From Deltaproteobacteria bacterium (GTDB lineage Bacteria; Desulfobacterota; Desulfobulbia; Desulfobulbales; BM004): 40,341 nt of DNA. The stretch is taken from contig JAHEID010000003.1 of the NCBI GenBank assembly GCA_024639555.1, positions 1 to 40,341 of the forward strand, read 5' to 3'. Position 1 is the stretch's first letter. Each line of letters begins with the position of its first letter. Made by a program: the position numbers and the translations under genes. The notes below the pieces were generated by a model, which had not been told where the DNA came from, made no database searches, and saw only the letters and a list, made by a program, of their open reading frames with translations. This document shows, one piece after another, positions 1 through 13,181 of this stretch.

Positions 1-2
1 AA

Positions 3-152
3 GTGAGGGTAGCAGAAAATTACCCAAATGGAACCTGGGTAAATACAGATGATTTGGGTACTATTGATAATGGTTTACACTTTGATGATGTTGGATATCG
101 ATTACTTGGTGAAAGATTTGCACTCGCAGCAATTAGTTTAATTGACCCTTAA
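3..152 (+). CDS. C-terminal fragment (5'-truncated by window) of a probable SGNH/SASA-type carbohydrate acetylesterase
   Basis: Own translation VRVAENYPNGTWVNTDDLGTIDNGLHFDDVGYRLLGERFALAAISLIDP*; the D-x-x-x-HF...GY..LG.RFA ending is typical of SGNH block V in sialate O-acetylesterase-like proteins. Confidence 0.6.
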   Translation: MRVAENYPNGTWVNTDDLGTIDNGLHFDDVGYRLLGERFALAAISLIDP

Positions 153-697
153 AATGAAATAGTTCAGATAAACAACAAAGCCAAGTAACAGACTATTATT
201 GAATTTGTCATTACTGCTGATATGTCTGACAGTGTCAAGTAGAAAAAACCTAGCCATTGCCCGTGTTTTATCGGGAGTTTTTCATTTCATATGCAGGGCA
301 CCGCCAACTGTAAAGATCTGCTATATCTTTACAGTCGTGAATCATTCCTGAATTATCAAGGTATCCACAATACATCTTAACTTTTTTAGTCAACATATCT
401 CCCTAATATATTGACCCGACTCATAAATCACGATATCTATATCCATCCAGTACTGATATTTTGGATATATCTTGACTTTTGATTGCCAGTGGACATCTTG
501 AATCATTTTTTGCAAGATGAAAGTTAAGATGTGGCAAGACATCTATAATTTTTAAAACCTTTCAAATAACCTCACTGTGGCACTTCCCCCCTTGACTTAC
601 CTTTTTTAGGTTTTAATATTTATTCTTATATAAAAGTAACTCATACAACCTCTACAAAATCTTTTTAAATAAAGAGGTGTACATAGACTAAAAAATT

Positions 698-1009
698 ATG
701 GCAAACAACAGGGTGAGAACTATGTCTGATGTCACTGATGACAACAGCAAGAATCAGCAGGAGTCCGGAGAAGAATCGGAATTGGAAGCATCGAACGATA
801 CTGGGGAAAAAAAAGTACAGACAAAGTCCTATAACCACCTCAGAGGAGCAAGTTATATGGTTCTGCTCATTGCGGCTGTTTTTGTGATATACAAAATAAT
901 GACAAAAAGCTGTTGCGGAGCGTCTTGGTCAACGGTTGTCTTCACAGCTGTCCTCGGTTTTGGACTGCTGGCATATTCTTTCTATCACAAATCCCATGAT
1001 CATGATTGA
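698..1009 (+). CDS. Hypothetical small membrane protein (acidic N-terminus, two TM helices, CC motif, His-rich tail)
   Basis: 103-aa ORF with two hydrophobic segments; TTGACT -35-like box at 592 upstream; terminator directly downstream. Confidence 0.65.
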   Translation: MANNRVRTMSDVTDDNSKNQQESGEESELEASNDTGEKKVQTKSYNHLRGASYMVLLIAAVFVIYKIMTKSCCGASWSTVVFTAVLGFGLLAYSFYHKSHDHD

Positions 1010-1043
1010 TTCTTACAATACCAAAATATCCATTGGATACATT

Positions 1044-1070
1044 AATCCTGCCTTCGGGCGGGGTTTTTTA
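1044..1070 (+). terminator. Rho-independent terminator (near-identical copy at 4574)
   Basis: AATCCTGCC-TTCG-GGCGGGGTT followed by T run. Confidence 0.85.
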
Positions 1071-1427
1071 TTTGATATTTAAAATGTACAGTGGAAATAT
1101 TCAGTCAGATTTTGTATGACAAAACCCAAGATGTTGGCAAGACATCTATAGTTCATGAAAAATCCCTTTCCTAACACATTGTGACACTTGATTTATCCAT
1201 CCACAAAATGTTATTAATAAAACTTAATCTTACCATAAATATAAACCTCTAAGAGAGAAGACTCTAGTGAGAGAGGTTTTTCTTAAAATGCCAGTTTAAA
1301 GCCTTCATCGGGAAGTGTTGTTTTCTTTGAAGGCCATTTGTGTTTTTGACAAGGACCGAAAGAAGCGATTACTTATCACCAATGTATAAGTACAATAATT
1401 AGCAACAATCCTTTCTAATCCATCATC

Positions 1428-2906
1428 ATGGAGACAAGTATGCATAGTAAATATATTCGATCAATCTGTGCAGCCGTAGCCTCGGCGTTTCTGTATATAA
1501 ATGCTATGCCTGCTTTCGCCGACTACACCAGAGTTACTGTTACTGGTACTGTCAGTGGCGTAGAAAGTGATTTGGGTGGTGGAACCTTTTTCGATCTCGG
1601 AGTGGACGATACAATTACCGGGCAGTTTGTTTACGGCACCAGCGAGGCGGATGCGACTTCAGTAGATTCAGAGGGCACTTTTAGCAAAGATTACTTTTTT
1701 ACCGGAAACAACTACGGCGCATCCATTACGAGCGCGAGCGGATCGGCAGGTTTTCAGAACGATCGGCTATCGCTTTTTGTCGATAATAATTTTCCGGTCG
1801 AAGCCGAAGATGCCGCTATTGTTGATCTTATTAACGAGGAATTCGGACTGAACATTCAAGTGGGGAACCAGCTGGATGGCTGGGGGATTGACGCAGAGTC
1901 ACCAGACGCAATCTGGGATAATCAGAATGACTGCCTGGTTAATGGTGCAGATTTGGAAATTATATTGCTTGATGTTGATGCAACGATGTATGACGGTCTG
2001 CCAGCAGCCCCCAATCTTCCGGAGCCGCCTGCTCAGAATGTGATCGATGCCCCTTTGTTCTTTATCGAGGAGGCCAGTGGCTCAACAGGCTGCGAAAATA
2101 TAGTCTACTCCGCTTACGGCAGGATTACCGATCTCCAGTACGAGCTGATTGAAAATGTAGCGACTCCCTATAATGATACCCAGGTTGCTATCATCGATGA
2201 TTTCACCATCGTGAAAAACGGCAATACCATCTGGTCGGATTCCTTTGGTGATGGCATTGCACCGATTACCAATGACGACTATCTCGTGAATGGTGCCGTG
2301 GGGCCGGAGTCGGGTGGAAAGCTCGCAATGGATACCTCTGTGGGTTCGGAGATCACTACGGGTACGAGCGGGCTCGAGATCGTTCGCCACCGGGTGCGCA
2401 AGAAGACCTCCACTGGCAGTGATATTACCAAAGGCCTCAGGACCGACGATACCTTTTCGGTGACGGCGACCTTTGACCTGACAGTGCCCGAGTTGCCTGG
2501 TGAGCATTACGGGATCATGCTGGCTGATAGTGTCAGCGGCACACCGGGGAATGACCACCTGGGCCTGGGTGTGCGGCACACATTCAAAGGCGATTTGAAG
2601 ATTCAATTCCGTCGACATGACAATCAGACAGGTACAGTCACCGTAATTGACGAGGTGGCACTGGATACGACCTCAGGTCATGAGCAGATTACCCTGAAAC
2701 TCAACCGGGCGAGTACGGGTACCAATGCCATTACCGCCTCCTATACCTACGGAGCCGGGTCGCCTGTTCCCTTTGCATCTACCGCAACCATCTTCAACGG
2801 GGAGAATTATACCCGGGCACAGTTTATGGCAGTGACGCCTTTGGAAGTGCCGGAAAGCGCCGCGCCCAAGGCCATGCCCTGGTTGTTCTTGCTGCTCGAG
2901 GAATAA
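1428..2906 (+). CDS. Secreted/surface acidic protein with C-terminal hydrophobic tail (AMPWLFLLLEE)
   Basis: 492-aa ORF, signal peptide ending AMPAFA-D, Asp/Thr/Gly-rich beta-type composition; start may be 1440. Confidence 0.8.
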   Translation: METSMHSKYIRSICAAVASAFLYINAMPAFADYTRVTVTGTVSGVESDLGGGTFFDLGVDDTITGQFVYGTSEADATSVDSEGTFSKDYFFTGNNYGASITSASGSAGFQNDRLSLFVDNNFPVEAEDAAIVDLINEEFGLNIQVGNQLDGWGIDAESPDAIWDNQNDCLVNGADLEIILLDVDATMYDGLPAAPNLPEPPAQNVIDAPLFFIEEASGSTGCENIVYSAYGRITDLQYELIENVATPYNDTQVAIIDDFTIVKNGNTIWSDSFGDGIAPITNDDYLVNGAVGPESGGKLAMDTSVGSEITTGTSGLEIVRHRVRKKTSTGSDITKGLRTDDTFSVTATFDLTVPELPGEHYGIMLADSVSGTPGNDHLGLGVRHTFKGDLKIQFRRHDNQTGTVTVIDEVALDTTSGHEQITLKLNRASTGTNAITASYTYGAGSPVPFASTATIFNGENYTRAQFMAVTPLEVPESAAPKAMPWLFLLLEE

Positions 2907-3079
2907 TGGTTTTTATCAATGAGACAGATGTCATCCGTAAGATCCTGGAGCATCTTGGGCTATGGGAAGACAAGACTCCCCCAGAACGCGCTCCACCCGA
3001 TTCAATTCCCTAAAAGAATTACGAACCGTATGACGACGGCTGGCCGCAGTAAGAGGAACCGTCAGTTACTATCCATTGA
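2906..3079 (+). pseudogene. IS91-family transposase C-terminal remnant
   Basis: Own translation MVFINETDVIRKILEHLGLWEDKTPPERAPPDSIP*KNYEPYDDGWPQ*EEPSVTIH*; FI....VI.KIL.HLGLW...RAPP resembles IS91/ISCR transposase C-termini; two in-frame stops. Confidence 0.7.
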
Positions 3080-3535
3080 GCCTGTCTTTTAAGATTATAT
3101 TTTCAGGCTGGTGGATTATTGCGCTGTTTGTTTTAACCAATAATCTAGATTTATTCCTCGCTTATCTATTTACGCATAACTGCTATATCGTTACACTCTT
3201 GAATAATTCTCAATGTGTCAAGATGTACAGTGGATATGTTGACTCTCATCAAAGAGTAAGGGGACCAACCAATCACGGCTGATCCCCTTTTTTCGTTGAA
3301 TTTCAATGACGACACCCCGGACGGCTTTTTGTTTTTTGCCTCCCTCCATTGGTTTAAAATCGTTAATCTTTCCTATAGAATCAAGGTGTACTTTGGACAT
3401 CTTGAATGGCAAGCAATCTGAACTTTAGGCTCAATCTCCCCAAGCCACCACATTGTGGTACTTTCTTCTTGACTATCTGATTGTTTCTATTTAAGAATAA
3501 CAATTACATACATAACCTCTATGAGGAGTTTCGCC

Positions 3536-3568
3536 ATGAAAAGGAGTAAGTTTAAAAAGCTTATATAA
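3536..3568 (+). CDS. Putative 10-aa leader/micro-peptide MKRSKFKKLI
   Basis: GAGGAG RBS 7 nt upstream, TTGACT-17-TAAGAA promoter-like pair from 3469, terminator hairpin directly after the stop. Confidence 0.35.
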   Translation: MKRSKFKKLI

Positions 3569-3606
3569 GGCCTCGTGGGTATAGTCCACCCCAACGGGGC
3601 TTTTGT
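3568..3606 (+). terminator. Putative intrinsic terminator/attenuator
   Basis: GCCTCGTGGG pairs with CCCAACGGGGC, followed by TTTTGTGTTTT. Confidence 0.6.
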
Positions 3607-3617
3607 GTTTTATTATC

Positions 3618-3694
3618 TCAAGAAAAAGCCAAACCTGCCGTGAGACAGGGACGGAAAATTGCGGGTCTTATAGGAGATAGCCGGGTTGCCTTGA
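3618..3694 (+). ncRNA. Cyclic di-GMP-I (GEMM-I) riboswitch
   Basis: P1 TCAAG/CTTGA; G-C-C-AAA-CC-TGCC-GTGA-GACAG-GGACGGAAA P2 with GNRA loop; P3 GGGTCT...AGATAGCCGGGTTGCC; located upstream of ORF 3773. Confidence 0.88.
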
Positions 3695-3772
3695 AAAGGG
3701 TTTCGGCACGCCCCAATTATTGGCGCGTGCCGAAAAAAAATTACTTATCACCCCAATCTTGAGGAAAAGAAA

Positions 3773-4267
3773 ATGAACACAAGCGGAAGACATCGAATCT
3801 ACATCACCCTGCTGCTGGGAAGCTTGCTGATTGCTCCGTCGCAAGTATTCAGCGAGCCACCCCGTCCTGAAGCTGAAGCTCAAGCAGAACTTAAACAAGT
3901 TCTTAAAGCAATTTACGATGATGCTATGTCAGCAAATGTCGAAGGACTTACAACTAGTCATCTTATTTCATCTAAGTTTACTAAATTTGGACCTCGAAAT
4001 TTCAGTAGACAAACAGCCGATGAAACGAATGAATCAGAGGCATCTTTCTTTACTTCAATCAAAGATCTAAAAGTGGAACTAAAAGATGTCAAGATAGATG
4101 TCTTTGGAGAAGTCGCAGTTACAACATTCTATCCTCATTTTTCATTCGTGAAGGATGACCAACTTAAAGAAGGCTCCAGTCGACAGACTCTTGTCTTTCT
4201 AAAAACAGATCAGGGCTGGAAAATCATTCATGAGCATGGAACTCCTAAGAAGTGTTTCACTGAATGA
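3773..4267 (+). CDS. Secreted NTF2-like/SnoaL-like domain protein
   Basis: Signal peptide; C-terminal R-x-T-x-VF-x-K...WKIIHEH motif of the SnoaL_3/DUF4440 fold; GAGG RBS. Confidence 0.8.
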   Translation: MNTSGRHRIYITLLLGSLLIAPSQVFSEPPRPEAEAQAELKQVLKAIYDDAMSANVEGLTTSHLISSKFTKFGPRNFSRQTADETNESEASFFTSIKDLKVELKDVKIDVFGEVAVTTFYPHFSFVKDDQLKEGSSRQTLVFLKTDQGWKIIHEHGTPKKCFTE

Positions 4268-4359
4268 CAGTCAAAACTCTATTTAAAAATAGCAACGAAA
4301 GTGAGTGACCATTTCACGGCCTAATGCTTGAATTAGAATACAAAAGTGATGATTAGAAA

Positions 4360-4548
4360 GTGGGCACTATTACTTCATATTATCAAGTTAACAGTGTTGA
4401 TTGCGATCCCCATGGGCCAAATCCAGAAAATTTTTATAAAGTTTTTCCAAACGACCCAAGCATAACAGGAGTGCAAAACTCTTCGTATCCGACACCGTCT
4501 TTTTCACTTGGTGAGATCCCCATAGCCTGTTGCGCTCCTGATCAATAG
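4360..4548 (+). CDS. Short hypothetical ORF or gene fragment
   Basis: 62 aa, GTG start, followed by terminator at 4574; no recognisable motif. Confidence 0.3.
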   Translation: MGTITSYYQVNSVDCDPHGPNPENFYKVFPNDPSITGVQNSSYPTPSFSLGEIPIACCAPDQ

Positions 4549-4573
4549 AGAGCAGTTCACATACCACAAGAAG

Positions 4574-4600
4574 AATCCTGCCTCCGGGCGGGGTTTTTTA
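4574..4600 (+). terminator. Rho-independent terminator (copy of 1044)
   Basis: AATCCTGCC-TCCG-GGCGGGGTT plus T run; one mismatch to 1044-1070. Confidence 0.85.
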
Positions 4601-4810
4601 TGTGATATTAAGATGTACGTTGGATATGTTAAGTCAGAGCTTGAATTACTAAACTCAACATTATGGCAAGGATATTTAACTTTCAGCGACAGAGAAAAGT
4701 TAACATATCCAGTGGATATATTGAATCTGATTCTGACGGCTTTTAAATCACATAGACGGCGTTAAACGGACATAGCCGGAGGTAAAGTCAGGTAAAGTAC
4801 TCTCAAAATT

Positions 4811-4857
4811 GGCCTTTCACGCCGGCGACACGAGTTCAAATCTCGTTGGGGGCGCCA
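4811..4857 (+). mobile_element. 3' half of tRNA-Glu(TTC): probable attR-type island boundary
   Basis: Anticodon loop CTTTCAC, T arm ACGAG-TTCAAAT-CTCGT, acceptor strand TGGGGGC-G-CCA; no D arm or 5' acceptor strand upstream; core gene purL follows. Confidence 0.85.
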
Positions 4858-12067: not shown

Positions 12068-13159
12068 CTACAGATCAAGAAACGTTTTGTCCCGGTTGAG
12101 GATGGTGCATCCTTTCTTTTCAATAACAACCATGTTTTCCAAGCGAACCCCACCCCGGCCTGGAAGATAGATACCCGGTTCCACGGTCACAACCATTCCT
12201 GCCTGGAGTTTATTGCGCCGCATCCTGTTGAGGGACGGTGATTCGTGCACAGCAAGACCAACGCCATGCCCGAGACCGTGCCCAAAGTTTTTCCCATATC
12301 CCGCCCCGGAAATTACCTCCCTGGCCGCCCTGTCTGCCTCCCTGGCCATGATGCCGGCTTTGATGGTTTTGAGGGCAGCGCGCTGGGCCTTGCGCACCAA
12401 ACGTATAATTTTTACAATGCCCTTGTCGGGTTTACCCAGAACAACTGTCCGGGTCATATCAGAACAGTAACCGTCCAGCTTCAAGCCCATGTCAATAATT
12501 ATTGTCTCCCCTTCGCTCATCACCCTATCTGTAGGTACTGCGTGGGGCAAGGCAGCATTCGGGCCGGCAGCAACAATAGTTGGAAATGCCACCGCATCTG
12601 CACCTCTATGCATCATGGTTGACTCAATGTCAAGGGCAACCTCTCTTTCTGTTTTTCCTGGTTTTAAATGAGCAAATACCTCCTGAAAAACAGACTCATT
12701 CAACAAAACAGATTGTTGGATTTTCTGTATTTCTTCCCGGGATTTTCTAATCCGCAGCTTTTCAACCATGCCGCTGACCGGTATCATTTCAATCCCCTGC
12801 TTTTGCCCCAAATCCATGAGCTTTATTGCGGCACCATACAGCAGGTAGTGGCTTTCAAAGGCCAGCCTTCGATGACCGCGCCGCCTCAAAATCCTCTTCA
12901 ATCCTTCCAGCAGGCTGCCCTGCAAGAGCAAGACCTCAAAGCCGACTGCCTCCTTCTCGGCCTGGAGCTGATAACGGGAATCGGTTAAGAGAAGAGGGGT
13001 TCCACGCCCGGGAACAAGCAGGACACCGGCGCTTTCTGCAATGGAGAGGTCGGTGGCTGTAAAGCCACTGAGATAACGCCTGTTTTCTGGCTGGGTAACC
13101 AAAAGGGCGTCAGCACCCTTTCGCCTTATCGCTGCCTGGATTTTATCAAGTGATTTCAA
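12068..13159 (-). CDS. Xaa-Pro aminopeptidase (M24B; creatinase N-domain + peptidase M24)
   Basis: NRRYLSGF, GYCSDMTRT, HGLGHGVGLAVHE, VEPGIY, GVRLE; start probably the TTG near 13159 rather than 13270. Confidence 0.93.
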   Translation of the reverse strand: MKSLDKIQAAIRRKGADALLVTQPENRRYLSGFTATDLSIAESAGVLLVPGRGTPLLLTDSRYQLQAEKEAVGFEVLLLQGSLLEGLKRILRRRGHRRLAFESHYLLYGAAIKLMDLGQKQGIEMIPVSGMVEKLRIRKSREEIQKIQQSVLLNESVFQEVFAHLKPGKTEREVALDIESTMMHRGADAVAFPTIVAAGPNAALPHAVPTDRVMSEGETIIIDMGLKLDGYCSDMTRTVVLGKPDKGIVKIIRLVRKAQRAALKTIKAGIMAREADRAAREVISGAGYGKNFGHGLGHGVGLAVHESPSLNRMRRNKLQAGMVVTVEPGIYLPGRGGVRLENMVVIEKKGCTILNRDKTFLDL

Positions 13160-13181
13160 ATTGTGAGGAGTTAATTGTTTT

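Follow-up and report, generated by a model that had tools for sequence, protein, structure and literature searches.

A paired palindromic module at the right end of a tRNA-Glu insertion

The DNA analysed here, a stretch of 40,341 nucleotides referred to as the window, is the entire contig C219 (GenBank JAHEID010000003.1) of a draft genome from the Desulfobulbales (G000; 2.42 Mb, 233 contigs, 85% complete). Positions 1 to 4810 form the right-hand end of an insertion at tRNA-Glu(TTC); apart from repeat units, most of this region is without a DNA match in the 12 other genus genomes (13 with G000). The subject of this study is one of these repeats, a 73-bp module in which two palindromic sites, S1 on the left and S2 on the right, are joined by a linker (Table 1). 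The first-pass annotation of the window had described three pairs of palindromes with a constant 22-bp gap and the same order of sites, together with a further site in which TGGCAAG begins one base after S1, and all of them were read as described. The motif TGGA-N38-42-TGGCAAG has three matches in the window, all within its first 4.7 kb, against 0.19 expected, and none of 100 shuffles reached three.

Table 1. Sites and associated features at the right end of the insertion (window coordinates)
Feature	Position	Strand	Remarks
S1 of pair a	477-501	+	core CCAGTGG 486-492
S2 of pair a	524-547	+	core TGGCAAG 532-538; left arm one base shorter
S1 of pair b	1079-1103	+	core ACAGTGG 1088-1094
S2 of pair b	1126-1150	+	core TGGCAAG 1135-1141
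S1 of pair c	4608-4632	+	core ACGTTGG 4617-4623
S2 of pair c	4655-4679	+	core TGGCAAG 4664-4670; no gene behind, only a lone S1 20 nt on
Deletion variant	3381-3413	+	S1 3381-3405, single A, TGGCAAG 3407-3413
Solitary S1 with pre-site (3180-3217)	3218-3242	+	fused to sequence found elsewhere after tRNA-Glu
Solitary S1, array end	4700-4724	+	directly before the end repeats of the island
S1-like palindrome	356-380	+	same arms, core CCACAAT; preceded by a pre-site
Further palindrome	388-415	+	same arms, different core
Upstream repeat units often joined to S1	214-355	+	terminator-like unit 214-300; pre-site with CTGCTAT box 318-355
Box 3 (ACAyTGTGGCAC-like)	571-585, 1175-1189, 3449-3463	+	directly before predicted -35
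Direct repeats GACGGC..TTAAA	4735-4790	+	right end of insertion; common to G001, G006 and G010
3' fragment of tRNA-Glu(TTC)	4811-4857	+	right boundary of the inserted region holding all pairs

Anatomy and conservation of the module

S1 and S2 both fit TCAAsAT-N11-ATsTTGA: each has a 7-bp core flanked by 9-bp arms, and 47 bp separate the two centres. S1 precedes S2 in all 44 full copies in G000, and the outer arms of the module are inverted repeats (TCAAGAT ... ATCTTGA). Conservation was measured on these 44 copies, with detection by profile favouring conserved columns; 54 copies from outside G000 were left out because the pattern that found them fixes both cores. The S2 core had a mean information of 1.71 bits and a pairwise identity of 0.95 (0.89 in the 15 weakest copies), followed by the left arm (1.14 bits, 0.68), core (1.06 bits, 0.64) and right arm (0.96 bits, 0.63) of S1, the left (0.94 bits, 0.61) and right (0.92 bits, 0.61) arms of S2 and the 22-bp linker (0.61 bits, 0.48). 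The proposal that spacers are kept where arms drift held for S2, whose heptamer is exactly TGGCAAG in 37 of the 44 copies, and not for S1, whose core is no better conserved than its arms. Linkers form at least two unrelated families of the same length, containing GAGTCAGATTTTGTATGACAAAAC or AACTGGTAATTTTTCATTTTAG, together with diverged forms.

The edges of the module are sharp. Of 1826 alignments between pairs of copies, 1567 end at columns 60-79, at or just after S2, while the left edge of S1 accounts for 646 starts and a point about 40 nt further upstream for another 436.

Copy number and distribution

Iterated nhmmer searches of G000 (25, 33, 40 and finally 45 matches) gave the 44 full copies and one S2 alone, on about 30 contigs, with arrays of several modules on C199, C221, C156, C86, C207 and C150 among others. 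A sequence-only model was built from 62 copies and applied to the 150 best candidates in each genome, so that its copy numbers are lower bounds. It found at least 44 copies in G000 and from at least 3 to at least 81 in each of the 12 other genus genomes, including at least 79 in G007 and at least 40 in G011; the module was present in 13/13 genus genomes, before unrelated genes. Outside the genus the same model gave three weak matches, in one of six genomes of other genera.

An exact two-core pattern (TTGCCAGTG-N38-44-TGGCAAG), run on 41 genomes, had 50 matches compared with none for the reversed pattern used as control, and in 45 of the 50 the span was exactly 57 nt. It was matched in nine of the 12 other genus genomes and in none of six family members from other genera. 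Among 22 genomes from other families there was a single match, with a 59-nt span and probably due to chance. A scan of one genome per species returned 59 loci (54 at E ≤ 1e-8 with the nhmmer profile), nearly all in uncultured records of metagenome-assembled genomes (MAGs) or single-amplified genomes under assorted labels. Full-score modules were also seen on short contigs of a Shewanella MAG (L084) and a Balneolales MAG (L086), which are probably mis-binned pieces of the module-bearing genus.

No description of the repeat was found in the literature searched, supplements lying outside that search, and the accessible part of the genome paper PMC10926707, which counts only repeats > 250 bp at > 99% identity, does not describe it. 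The module is a previously undescribed 73-base two-site DNA unit of one uncultured genus related to sulfate reducers.

Modules front variable genes and form arrays

Modules lie between genes. In G000, an open reading frame (ORF) of at least 55 aa on the same strand starts within 650 nt downstream of 38 of the 45 copies, these being mechanical ORFs of which some short ones look spurious; four of the seven remaining copies have a contig end < 600 nt away. Start codons follow at distances of about 25 to > 500 nt. Downstream genes are varied, encoding GGDEF and PilZ proteins, a RimK operon, cytochromes, a permease, rhodanese, VKOR and many proteins of unassigned function. In G011 they extend from single genes to a five-gene run and an ORF of 3061 aa; the latter begins 73 nt after its module (G011:C2:120452-129777), so very large genes are fronted too.

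Arrays have the form (S1-S2-genes)n-S1, and within them all modules point one way. A lone S1 closes the arrays at 3218-3242 and 4700-4724 of the window, on C200 and C207 and in G006, and usually carries a 40-nt pre-site (CTGCTAT ... GTGAAT ...). Lone S2 sites are rare and weak, and pair c is intact with no gene behind it. Other repeat units (the terminator unit, the pre-site and box 3) combine with the module as a mosaic, and some copies have up to 150 nt of upstream sequence in common. The terminator-like unit, with its conserved tail CATTTCATATGCAGG, is the most abundant piece of this mosaic; many G007 contigs begin or end inside it, and it probably breaks short-read assemblies.

The insertion itself can be followed in relatives. 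An intact tRNA-Glu(TTC) gene is present on C156 of G000 (13085-13162), with modules directly after it; intact tRNA-Lys and tRNA-Glu genes adjoin purL in G011 and G012; and in G001, G006 and G010 the tRNA fragment comes with the end repeats known from the window. The visible ends of the insertion yielded no integrase. Immediately before position 4811, three contig ends of RNA run X16 carry the 5' half of a tRNA. In this run and in X15, both used as Logan contigs, purL is covered as evenly as it would be from DNA and starts are not readable; the gap in cover at 1201-3000 carries no meaning.

Similarity between relatives breaks at modules

Among genes behind modules, one encoding a citrate-synthase-like protein was found in 3/13 and one encoding a Fur-like protein in 3/13 genus genomes. 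The purL gene was found in 9/13. In seven pairs of copies, 75% or more of the 80 nt behind S2 agree. Three of the pairs are identical over the whole compared sequence; a fourth (C107/L090) retains the linker (16/22), its upstream sequence being too short to judge. In the remaining three the S2 core is 7/7 identical, with 8-10/22 in the linker and 25-35% identity over the upstream 60 nt. By visual comparison at the Fur-like locus, likeness between G000 and G004 is about 90% from GGCAAG to the right, and to its left the two are unrelated. At two core genes, synteny with other species stops at S1: downstream of a conserved gene of 820 aa it stops at the S1 edge for four species, G005 having a decayed module there, and a cassette common to G005 and G000 stops 10 nt inside S1. 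The limits of differences between relatives coincide with modules, similarity breaking in or beside S2, and it appears from these comparisons that modules sit where variable genes were swapped between species. Apparent contig joints (352>4610, 1146>3445 and 246>3219) were rejected as evidence of excision, their sides being at most 38 nt long and matching the mosaic of paralogous copies.

Folding and promoter tests

With RNA parameters, folds of six copies on both strands had z-scores of -2.09 to +0.99. DNA-parameter folds of 20 copies (77 nt) ranged from -2.7 to -10.9 kcal/mol, with z from +0.54 to -2.22 and only 3/20 at -2 or below. The two local hairpins showed no excess pairing over column shuffles (0.626 compared with 0.636; 455/500 shuffles reached the observed value). 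For a 25-pair long hairpin in 96 rows, 0.718 of cells were paired compared with 0.706 in shuffles (7/500 reached), and 108 cells were changed on both sides compared with 88 (3/500). This excess fades in the 45 rows of G000 itself (57/500 and 24/500), and the part contributed by the two inner arms (a2:a3) tracks the two linker families and counts as one event. We read S1 and S2 as probable protein sites on duplex DNA rather than parts of a folded strand.

Consensus scans put promoters at cassette-specific spots, for example 592-620 and 3469-3498 of the window, each just after box 3. No consensus promoter column (threshold 9/12 consensus matches) was common to 12% or more of 97 copies. TTTACA-18-TATACT is found in two pre-sites of C199, ending at S1, and in few copies only. 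Several likenesses to known signals were rejected. T[TG]GACT in the right arm of S2 fails as a -35, since TAnnnT occurs at matching offsets in 0, 1 and 0 of 96 copies. The S1 core TTGCCA followed by TGGTAAT in one linker family has 8/12 consensus matches as an internal promoter and fails the scan. By reading, TGGCA in S2 or box 3 could belong to a sigma-54 promoter, but the -12 GC is absent at the right distance, and DnaA-box and integration host factor likenesses have 6-7/9 matches or lack the TTR part.

A possible joint of cassette shuffling

It is secure that the module is a discrete, selected, genus-specific two-site unit on duplex DNA at the borders of variable gene units. The explanation that we place first, tentatively because no partner enzyme was found and informative break points are few, is that it may be a duplex protein-binding joint of cassette shuffling, with S2 as crossover and S1 as accessory site. 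One protein would grip the shared arms (TCAAsAT ... ATsTTGA, 9-7-9) at S1 and S2 as duplex docking sites, and accessory gene units would be cut out, swapped and stacked into arrays at the module. S2, with its near-invariant asymmetric TGGCAAG, would be the likely exchange point, DNA to its right travelling with the gene unit. S1, at a fixed distance of 47 bp (about 4.5 helical turns), would be occupied by a further pair of proteins and serve as accessory or partner site. Host Xer-type tyrosine recombinases would be the simplest candidate enzyme, and G000 has two Xer homologues, on C24 and C44. What the comparisons show is the anatomy of the module, its copy numbers, its restriction to the genus, its placement beside variable genes and the breaks at S2; that a protein binds, that strands are exchanged at the site and which enzyme would do so are inferred.

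The first-pass annotation had already proposed a composite crossover-plus-accessory site as a better fit than a simple operator. The 9-7-9 geometry, the near-invariant S2 core, the breaks at S2 and the arrays ending in a lone S1 agree with that proposal; the absence of a co-distributed recombinase, the variable S1 core and the weak arm positions next to S2 do not. The preference over an operator is retained as a ranking, with the operator pair close behind. The annotation had also suggested that the quasi-symmetric CCAnTGG spacer could allow inversion, and a single S2(-)-S1-S2(+) arrangement around a shared S1 (G011:C9) fits an S1 that works in both directions.

Several results weigh against a recombination joint. 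The S1 heptamer has 23 variants in the 44 copies, with CCAGTGG in only seven, a variability too high for a site needing matching overlaps. The arm positions flanking the S2 core (columns 54-55 and 63-64) are the least conserved, at 0.2-0.7 bits, which is the opposite of dif or lox. Informative breaks come from three pairs and three loci, and as S2 is the longest conserved stretch, rare homology-driven exchange would also break there. No excised circle or population-level joint was seen in the contig data. In G011, 17 of 21 modules point towards the next ORF (100 aa or longer), counted in three stretches (122 kb of a 20-contig genome holding about 40 copies) chosen for having module matches, and on C9 of the same genome the shared S1 serves two outward S2 sites between divergent genes. 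The two observations are in keeping with a regulatory element.

The enzyme search points the same way. No recombinase was found to be co-distributed with the module. G000 encodes five tyrosine recombinases by family search, no serine resolvase (PF00239; the genome is 85% complete) and, for Y1 transposases (PF01797), only an 81-aa fragment (24.1 bits). Integron integrase (TIGR02249) scored above cut-off in one of five genomes only, at G000:C178 (469 bits), and not in G005, G006, G007 or G011, which carry 39-81 modules. Two overlapping Xer-like tyrosine recombinases (369 and 303 aa) encoded on C200 were rejected as the module enzyme: homologues occur in only two of the 12 other genus genomes as well as in module-free genera, none was found in searches of G007 (79 copies) or G011 (40 copies), and the element that carries them is itself an insertion into the pre-site.

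The ends of this 2.2-kb element (G000:C200:2136-4323, L009; also G006:C308, L018) are inverted repeats of 14 bp (TATACGTAACAAAA). The element also shows a direct repeat of 9 bp, GCTGCTATC, and is inserted at GCTGCTATC in a module pre-site in both G000 and G006. Relatives at 44-58% identity occur in other genera, with similar ends in three genomes (G016, G027 and G032). The integrase on C178 belongs to a small classical integron (163-3400) with short ORFs between GC-rich attC-like repeats, whose array ends before ilvC; intI remnants are present in G005 and G006. A search of G000 with dif-like motifs gave no candidate, and a solitary S2 on C105 was rejected as dif, not being conserved in any of 18 other family genomes. 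A repeat met in that search, ATAGAyTTrTGyr-ATAAATAGAkTTATGT, is present at G000:C34:23907, C44:4541 and C181:13640.

A more specific version of the recombination joint is that the genus has an integron-independent duplex cassette system, its units bounded by two sites with the same arms and different overlap sequences, S2 (TGGCAAG) on the left and S1 on the right, and exchanged or stacked by host Xer-type recombinases. We consider this decidedly unlikely. If true, such a system would be nature's equivalent of recombinase-mediated cassette exchange with heterospecific sites, and would account for the arrays and the lone S1 at their ends, for the S2-S1 slot left empty at 4655-4724 and for the fact that no enzyme is linked to the module.

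Alternative explanations

Next after the recombination joint, and rather doubtful, comes a pair of operators for one genus-specific regulator (a repressor, silencer or insulator) placed before accessory units, with shuffling as a by-product of the many copies, much as in the PeSL regulatory cassettes of T4-type phages described below. Every copy is intergenic, modules and next genes are co-oriented in G011 and, by mechanical ORFs, in G000, and the S2(-)-S1-S2(+) arrangement between divergent genes is what such an operator would predict. The palindromic arms and fixed phasing suit cooperative dimers, and the local hairpins lack excess base-pair covariation. GGDEF, PilZ and cyclic di-GMP (c-di-GMP) riboswitch units downstream hint at one regulon, and a few pre-sites carry the TTTACA-18-TATACT promoter directly before S1. 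However, no -10 follows S2 at a fixed distance, no promoter column is shared by 12% or more of copies, and the distance to the start codon varies widely. Conservation of linker and flank within families indicates spread by copying rather than independent evolution of operators, copy number differs 25-fold among congeners, pair c (4608-4679) has been kept whole in the absence of a downstream gene, and a near-invariant asymmetric 7-bp centre would be unusual for a dimer operator.

A selfish mosaic repeat, that is, a small non-autonomous mobile or gene-converting element without host role, similar to miniature inverted-repeat transposable elements, bacterial interspersed mosaic elements (BIMEs) or BOX, is an unlikely explanation. 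The module would then merely insert into, or recombine in, gene-poor spacers. Its two sharp edges, its inverted outer arms, the mosaic with terminator unit, pre-site and box 3, the very variable copy number and the contig breaks at these units are all expected of such an element, as is the tandem-recombinase element at GCTGCTATC of the pre-site in both genus genomes with a close copy. Yet no transposase partner was found in G000, no target duplication was visible by eye in alignments that were not systematically scored, and orientation follows the downstream gene. In addition, weak or syntenic copies that are otherwise decayed still have the S2 core and the spacing, which suggests selection, subject to the detection bias.

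It is very unlikely that the module works as a folded single strand, either attC-like DNA or a 5' leader RNA, in which a long imperfect hairpin would pair S1 TTGCCA with S2 TGGCAA and the arms as a1:a4 and a2:a3. About half of the 20 DNA folds, their structures read by eye, do pair TTGCCA with TGGCAA, and the 96 rows show the excess of pairing and of double changes given above. Against this, energies are small for 77 nt, few folds reach z ≤ -2, the excess fades in the rows of G000 and follows linker families, and related rows can beat such shuffles without structure. Moreover, S1 copies with GTAC in place of TGCC keep TGGCAAG unchanged.

Plain unconstrained duplication of one intergenic block, which the first-pass annotation expected if spacers were no better conserved than the linker, has hardly any likelihood: some copies do share long upstream sequence, but the linker was far less conserved than either core in the 44 copies, two unrelated linker families have equal length, spacing is fixed in 45/50 matches, and all 13 genomes of the genus carry the module before unrelated genes.

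Likeness to known systems

The module was compared with known families of repeats and recombination sites, and it fails a defining feature of each family that could be tested. Like integron attC, it is a conserved element of 60-140 nt between co-oriented variable, often uncharacterized genes in arrays. An attC joins two simple sites through a variable middle; in each site an inverted pair encloses a short spacer, and the cassette joint lies at the right-hand one. The module shares this layout, and its proposed joint, S2, is likewise on the right. In contrast to attC, however, it lacks RYYYAAC/GTTRRRY end boxes, ending in TCAAsAT and ATsTTGA, lies on the 5' side of genes, even between divergent ones, and occurs in genomes of which one in the five searched has IntI above cut-off, beside different GC-rich attC repeats. 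Its fold appears to be weak and the covariation marginal. Identity with attC was rejected, integrase being above cut-off in G000 only among these five and the C178 integron having its own GC-rich repeats ending GTTAAC.

Repetitive extragenic palindromic (REP) sequences and BIMEs are GC-rich stable hairpins in alternating orientation at gene 3' ends, associated with RAYT transposases. Paired palindromes, a fixed linker type, motif mosaics and many intergenic copies recall BIMEs, whereas the AT-rich arms, fixed direct order, position on the 5' side of genes and lone 81-aa Y1 fragment do not.

Xer recombinases act at dif, at cer and psi on plasmids with accessory sequences, and at the pdif modules of Acinetobacter plasmids. 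Inverted arms around a 6-8 bp centre and bounded gene modules are features in common, and host recombinases could serve, so that a linked enzyme would be dispensable; the right arm of some S1 sites (ATATGTTAAGT, 4623-4633 in the window) resembles the XerD arm. The module differs in its layout of 9-7-9 rather than 11-6-11, its non-alternating orientation and inner arm positions that are the least conserved. In the res sites of the Tn3 family, imperfect palindromes that agree in their ends and differ in their spacers are set at strict distances, and one of them is the crossover. Same-arm palindromes with different spacers at a strict distance make the module similar; the lack of a serine recombinase match in G000 and the dozens of copies per chromosome set it apart.

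The promoter early stem-loops (PeSL) of T4-type phages are short conserved intergenic cassettes flanking non-essential genes in hyperplastic regions, and they consist of a strong sigma-70 promoter and a terminator stem-loop; differences between relatives map to cassette exchanges (Arbiol et al. 2010, PMC2839356). The module is like PeSL in being intergenic, in flanking variable genes and in marking the limits of differences between relatives, and unlike it in having no shared consensus promoter, in its weak-hairpin palindromes and in its location on a bacterial chromosome.

Neighbouring repeats and riboswitch

About 140 nt beyond each of the two tRNA-Glu genes of G000 (TTC, C156:13085-13162; CTC, C28:10083-10158) come the same sequence and a module. 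The GACGGC..TT(T)AAA direct repeats at the end of the insertion (4735-4790), kept in G001, G006 and G010, look like arm-type integrase sites. A similar GACGGCTTTTTG is found after both tRNA-Glu genes and at 3325-3336 of the window.

A c-di-GMP-I-GGC riboswitch is present at 3619-3694 (69.5 bits; gathering score 59), before an ORF encoding a SnoaL_3 protein (3773-4267). Together with box 3, a promoter and a leader it makes up a unit (about 3445-3697) that is repeated at no fewer than seven other loci of the genus, in one case preceding a PilZ gene on C150. Directly after the ORF at 1428-2906 lies another repeat unit (2911-3132), found at seven or more other genus loci with 72-88% identity. A 35-aa ORF within it (2907-3013) had no Pfam match; it may resemble the C-terminus of an IS91-type transposase.

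Implications for the genus

If the module is a recombination joint, it would represent a second, integron-independent way to build and reshuffle accessory-gene arrays, possibly with housekeeping recombinases, and would account both for a large part of the flexible genome of this uncultured Desulfobulbales genus and for its poor assemblies. If it is instead an operator pair, it would define a regulon of up to about 80 promoter regions over the accessory genes of the genus. In either case the module provides two precise 25-bp sequences and a ready marker for variable regions in metagenomes.

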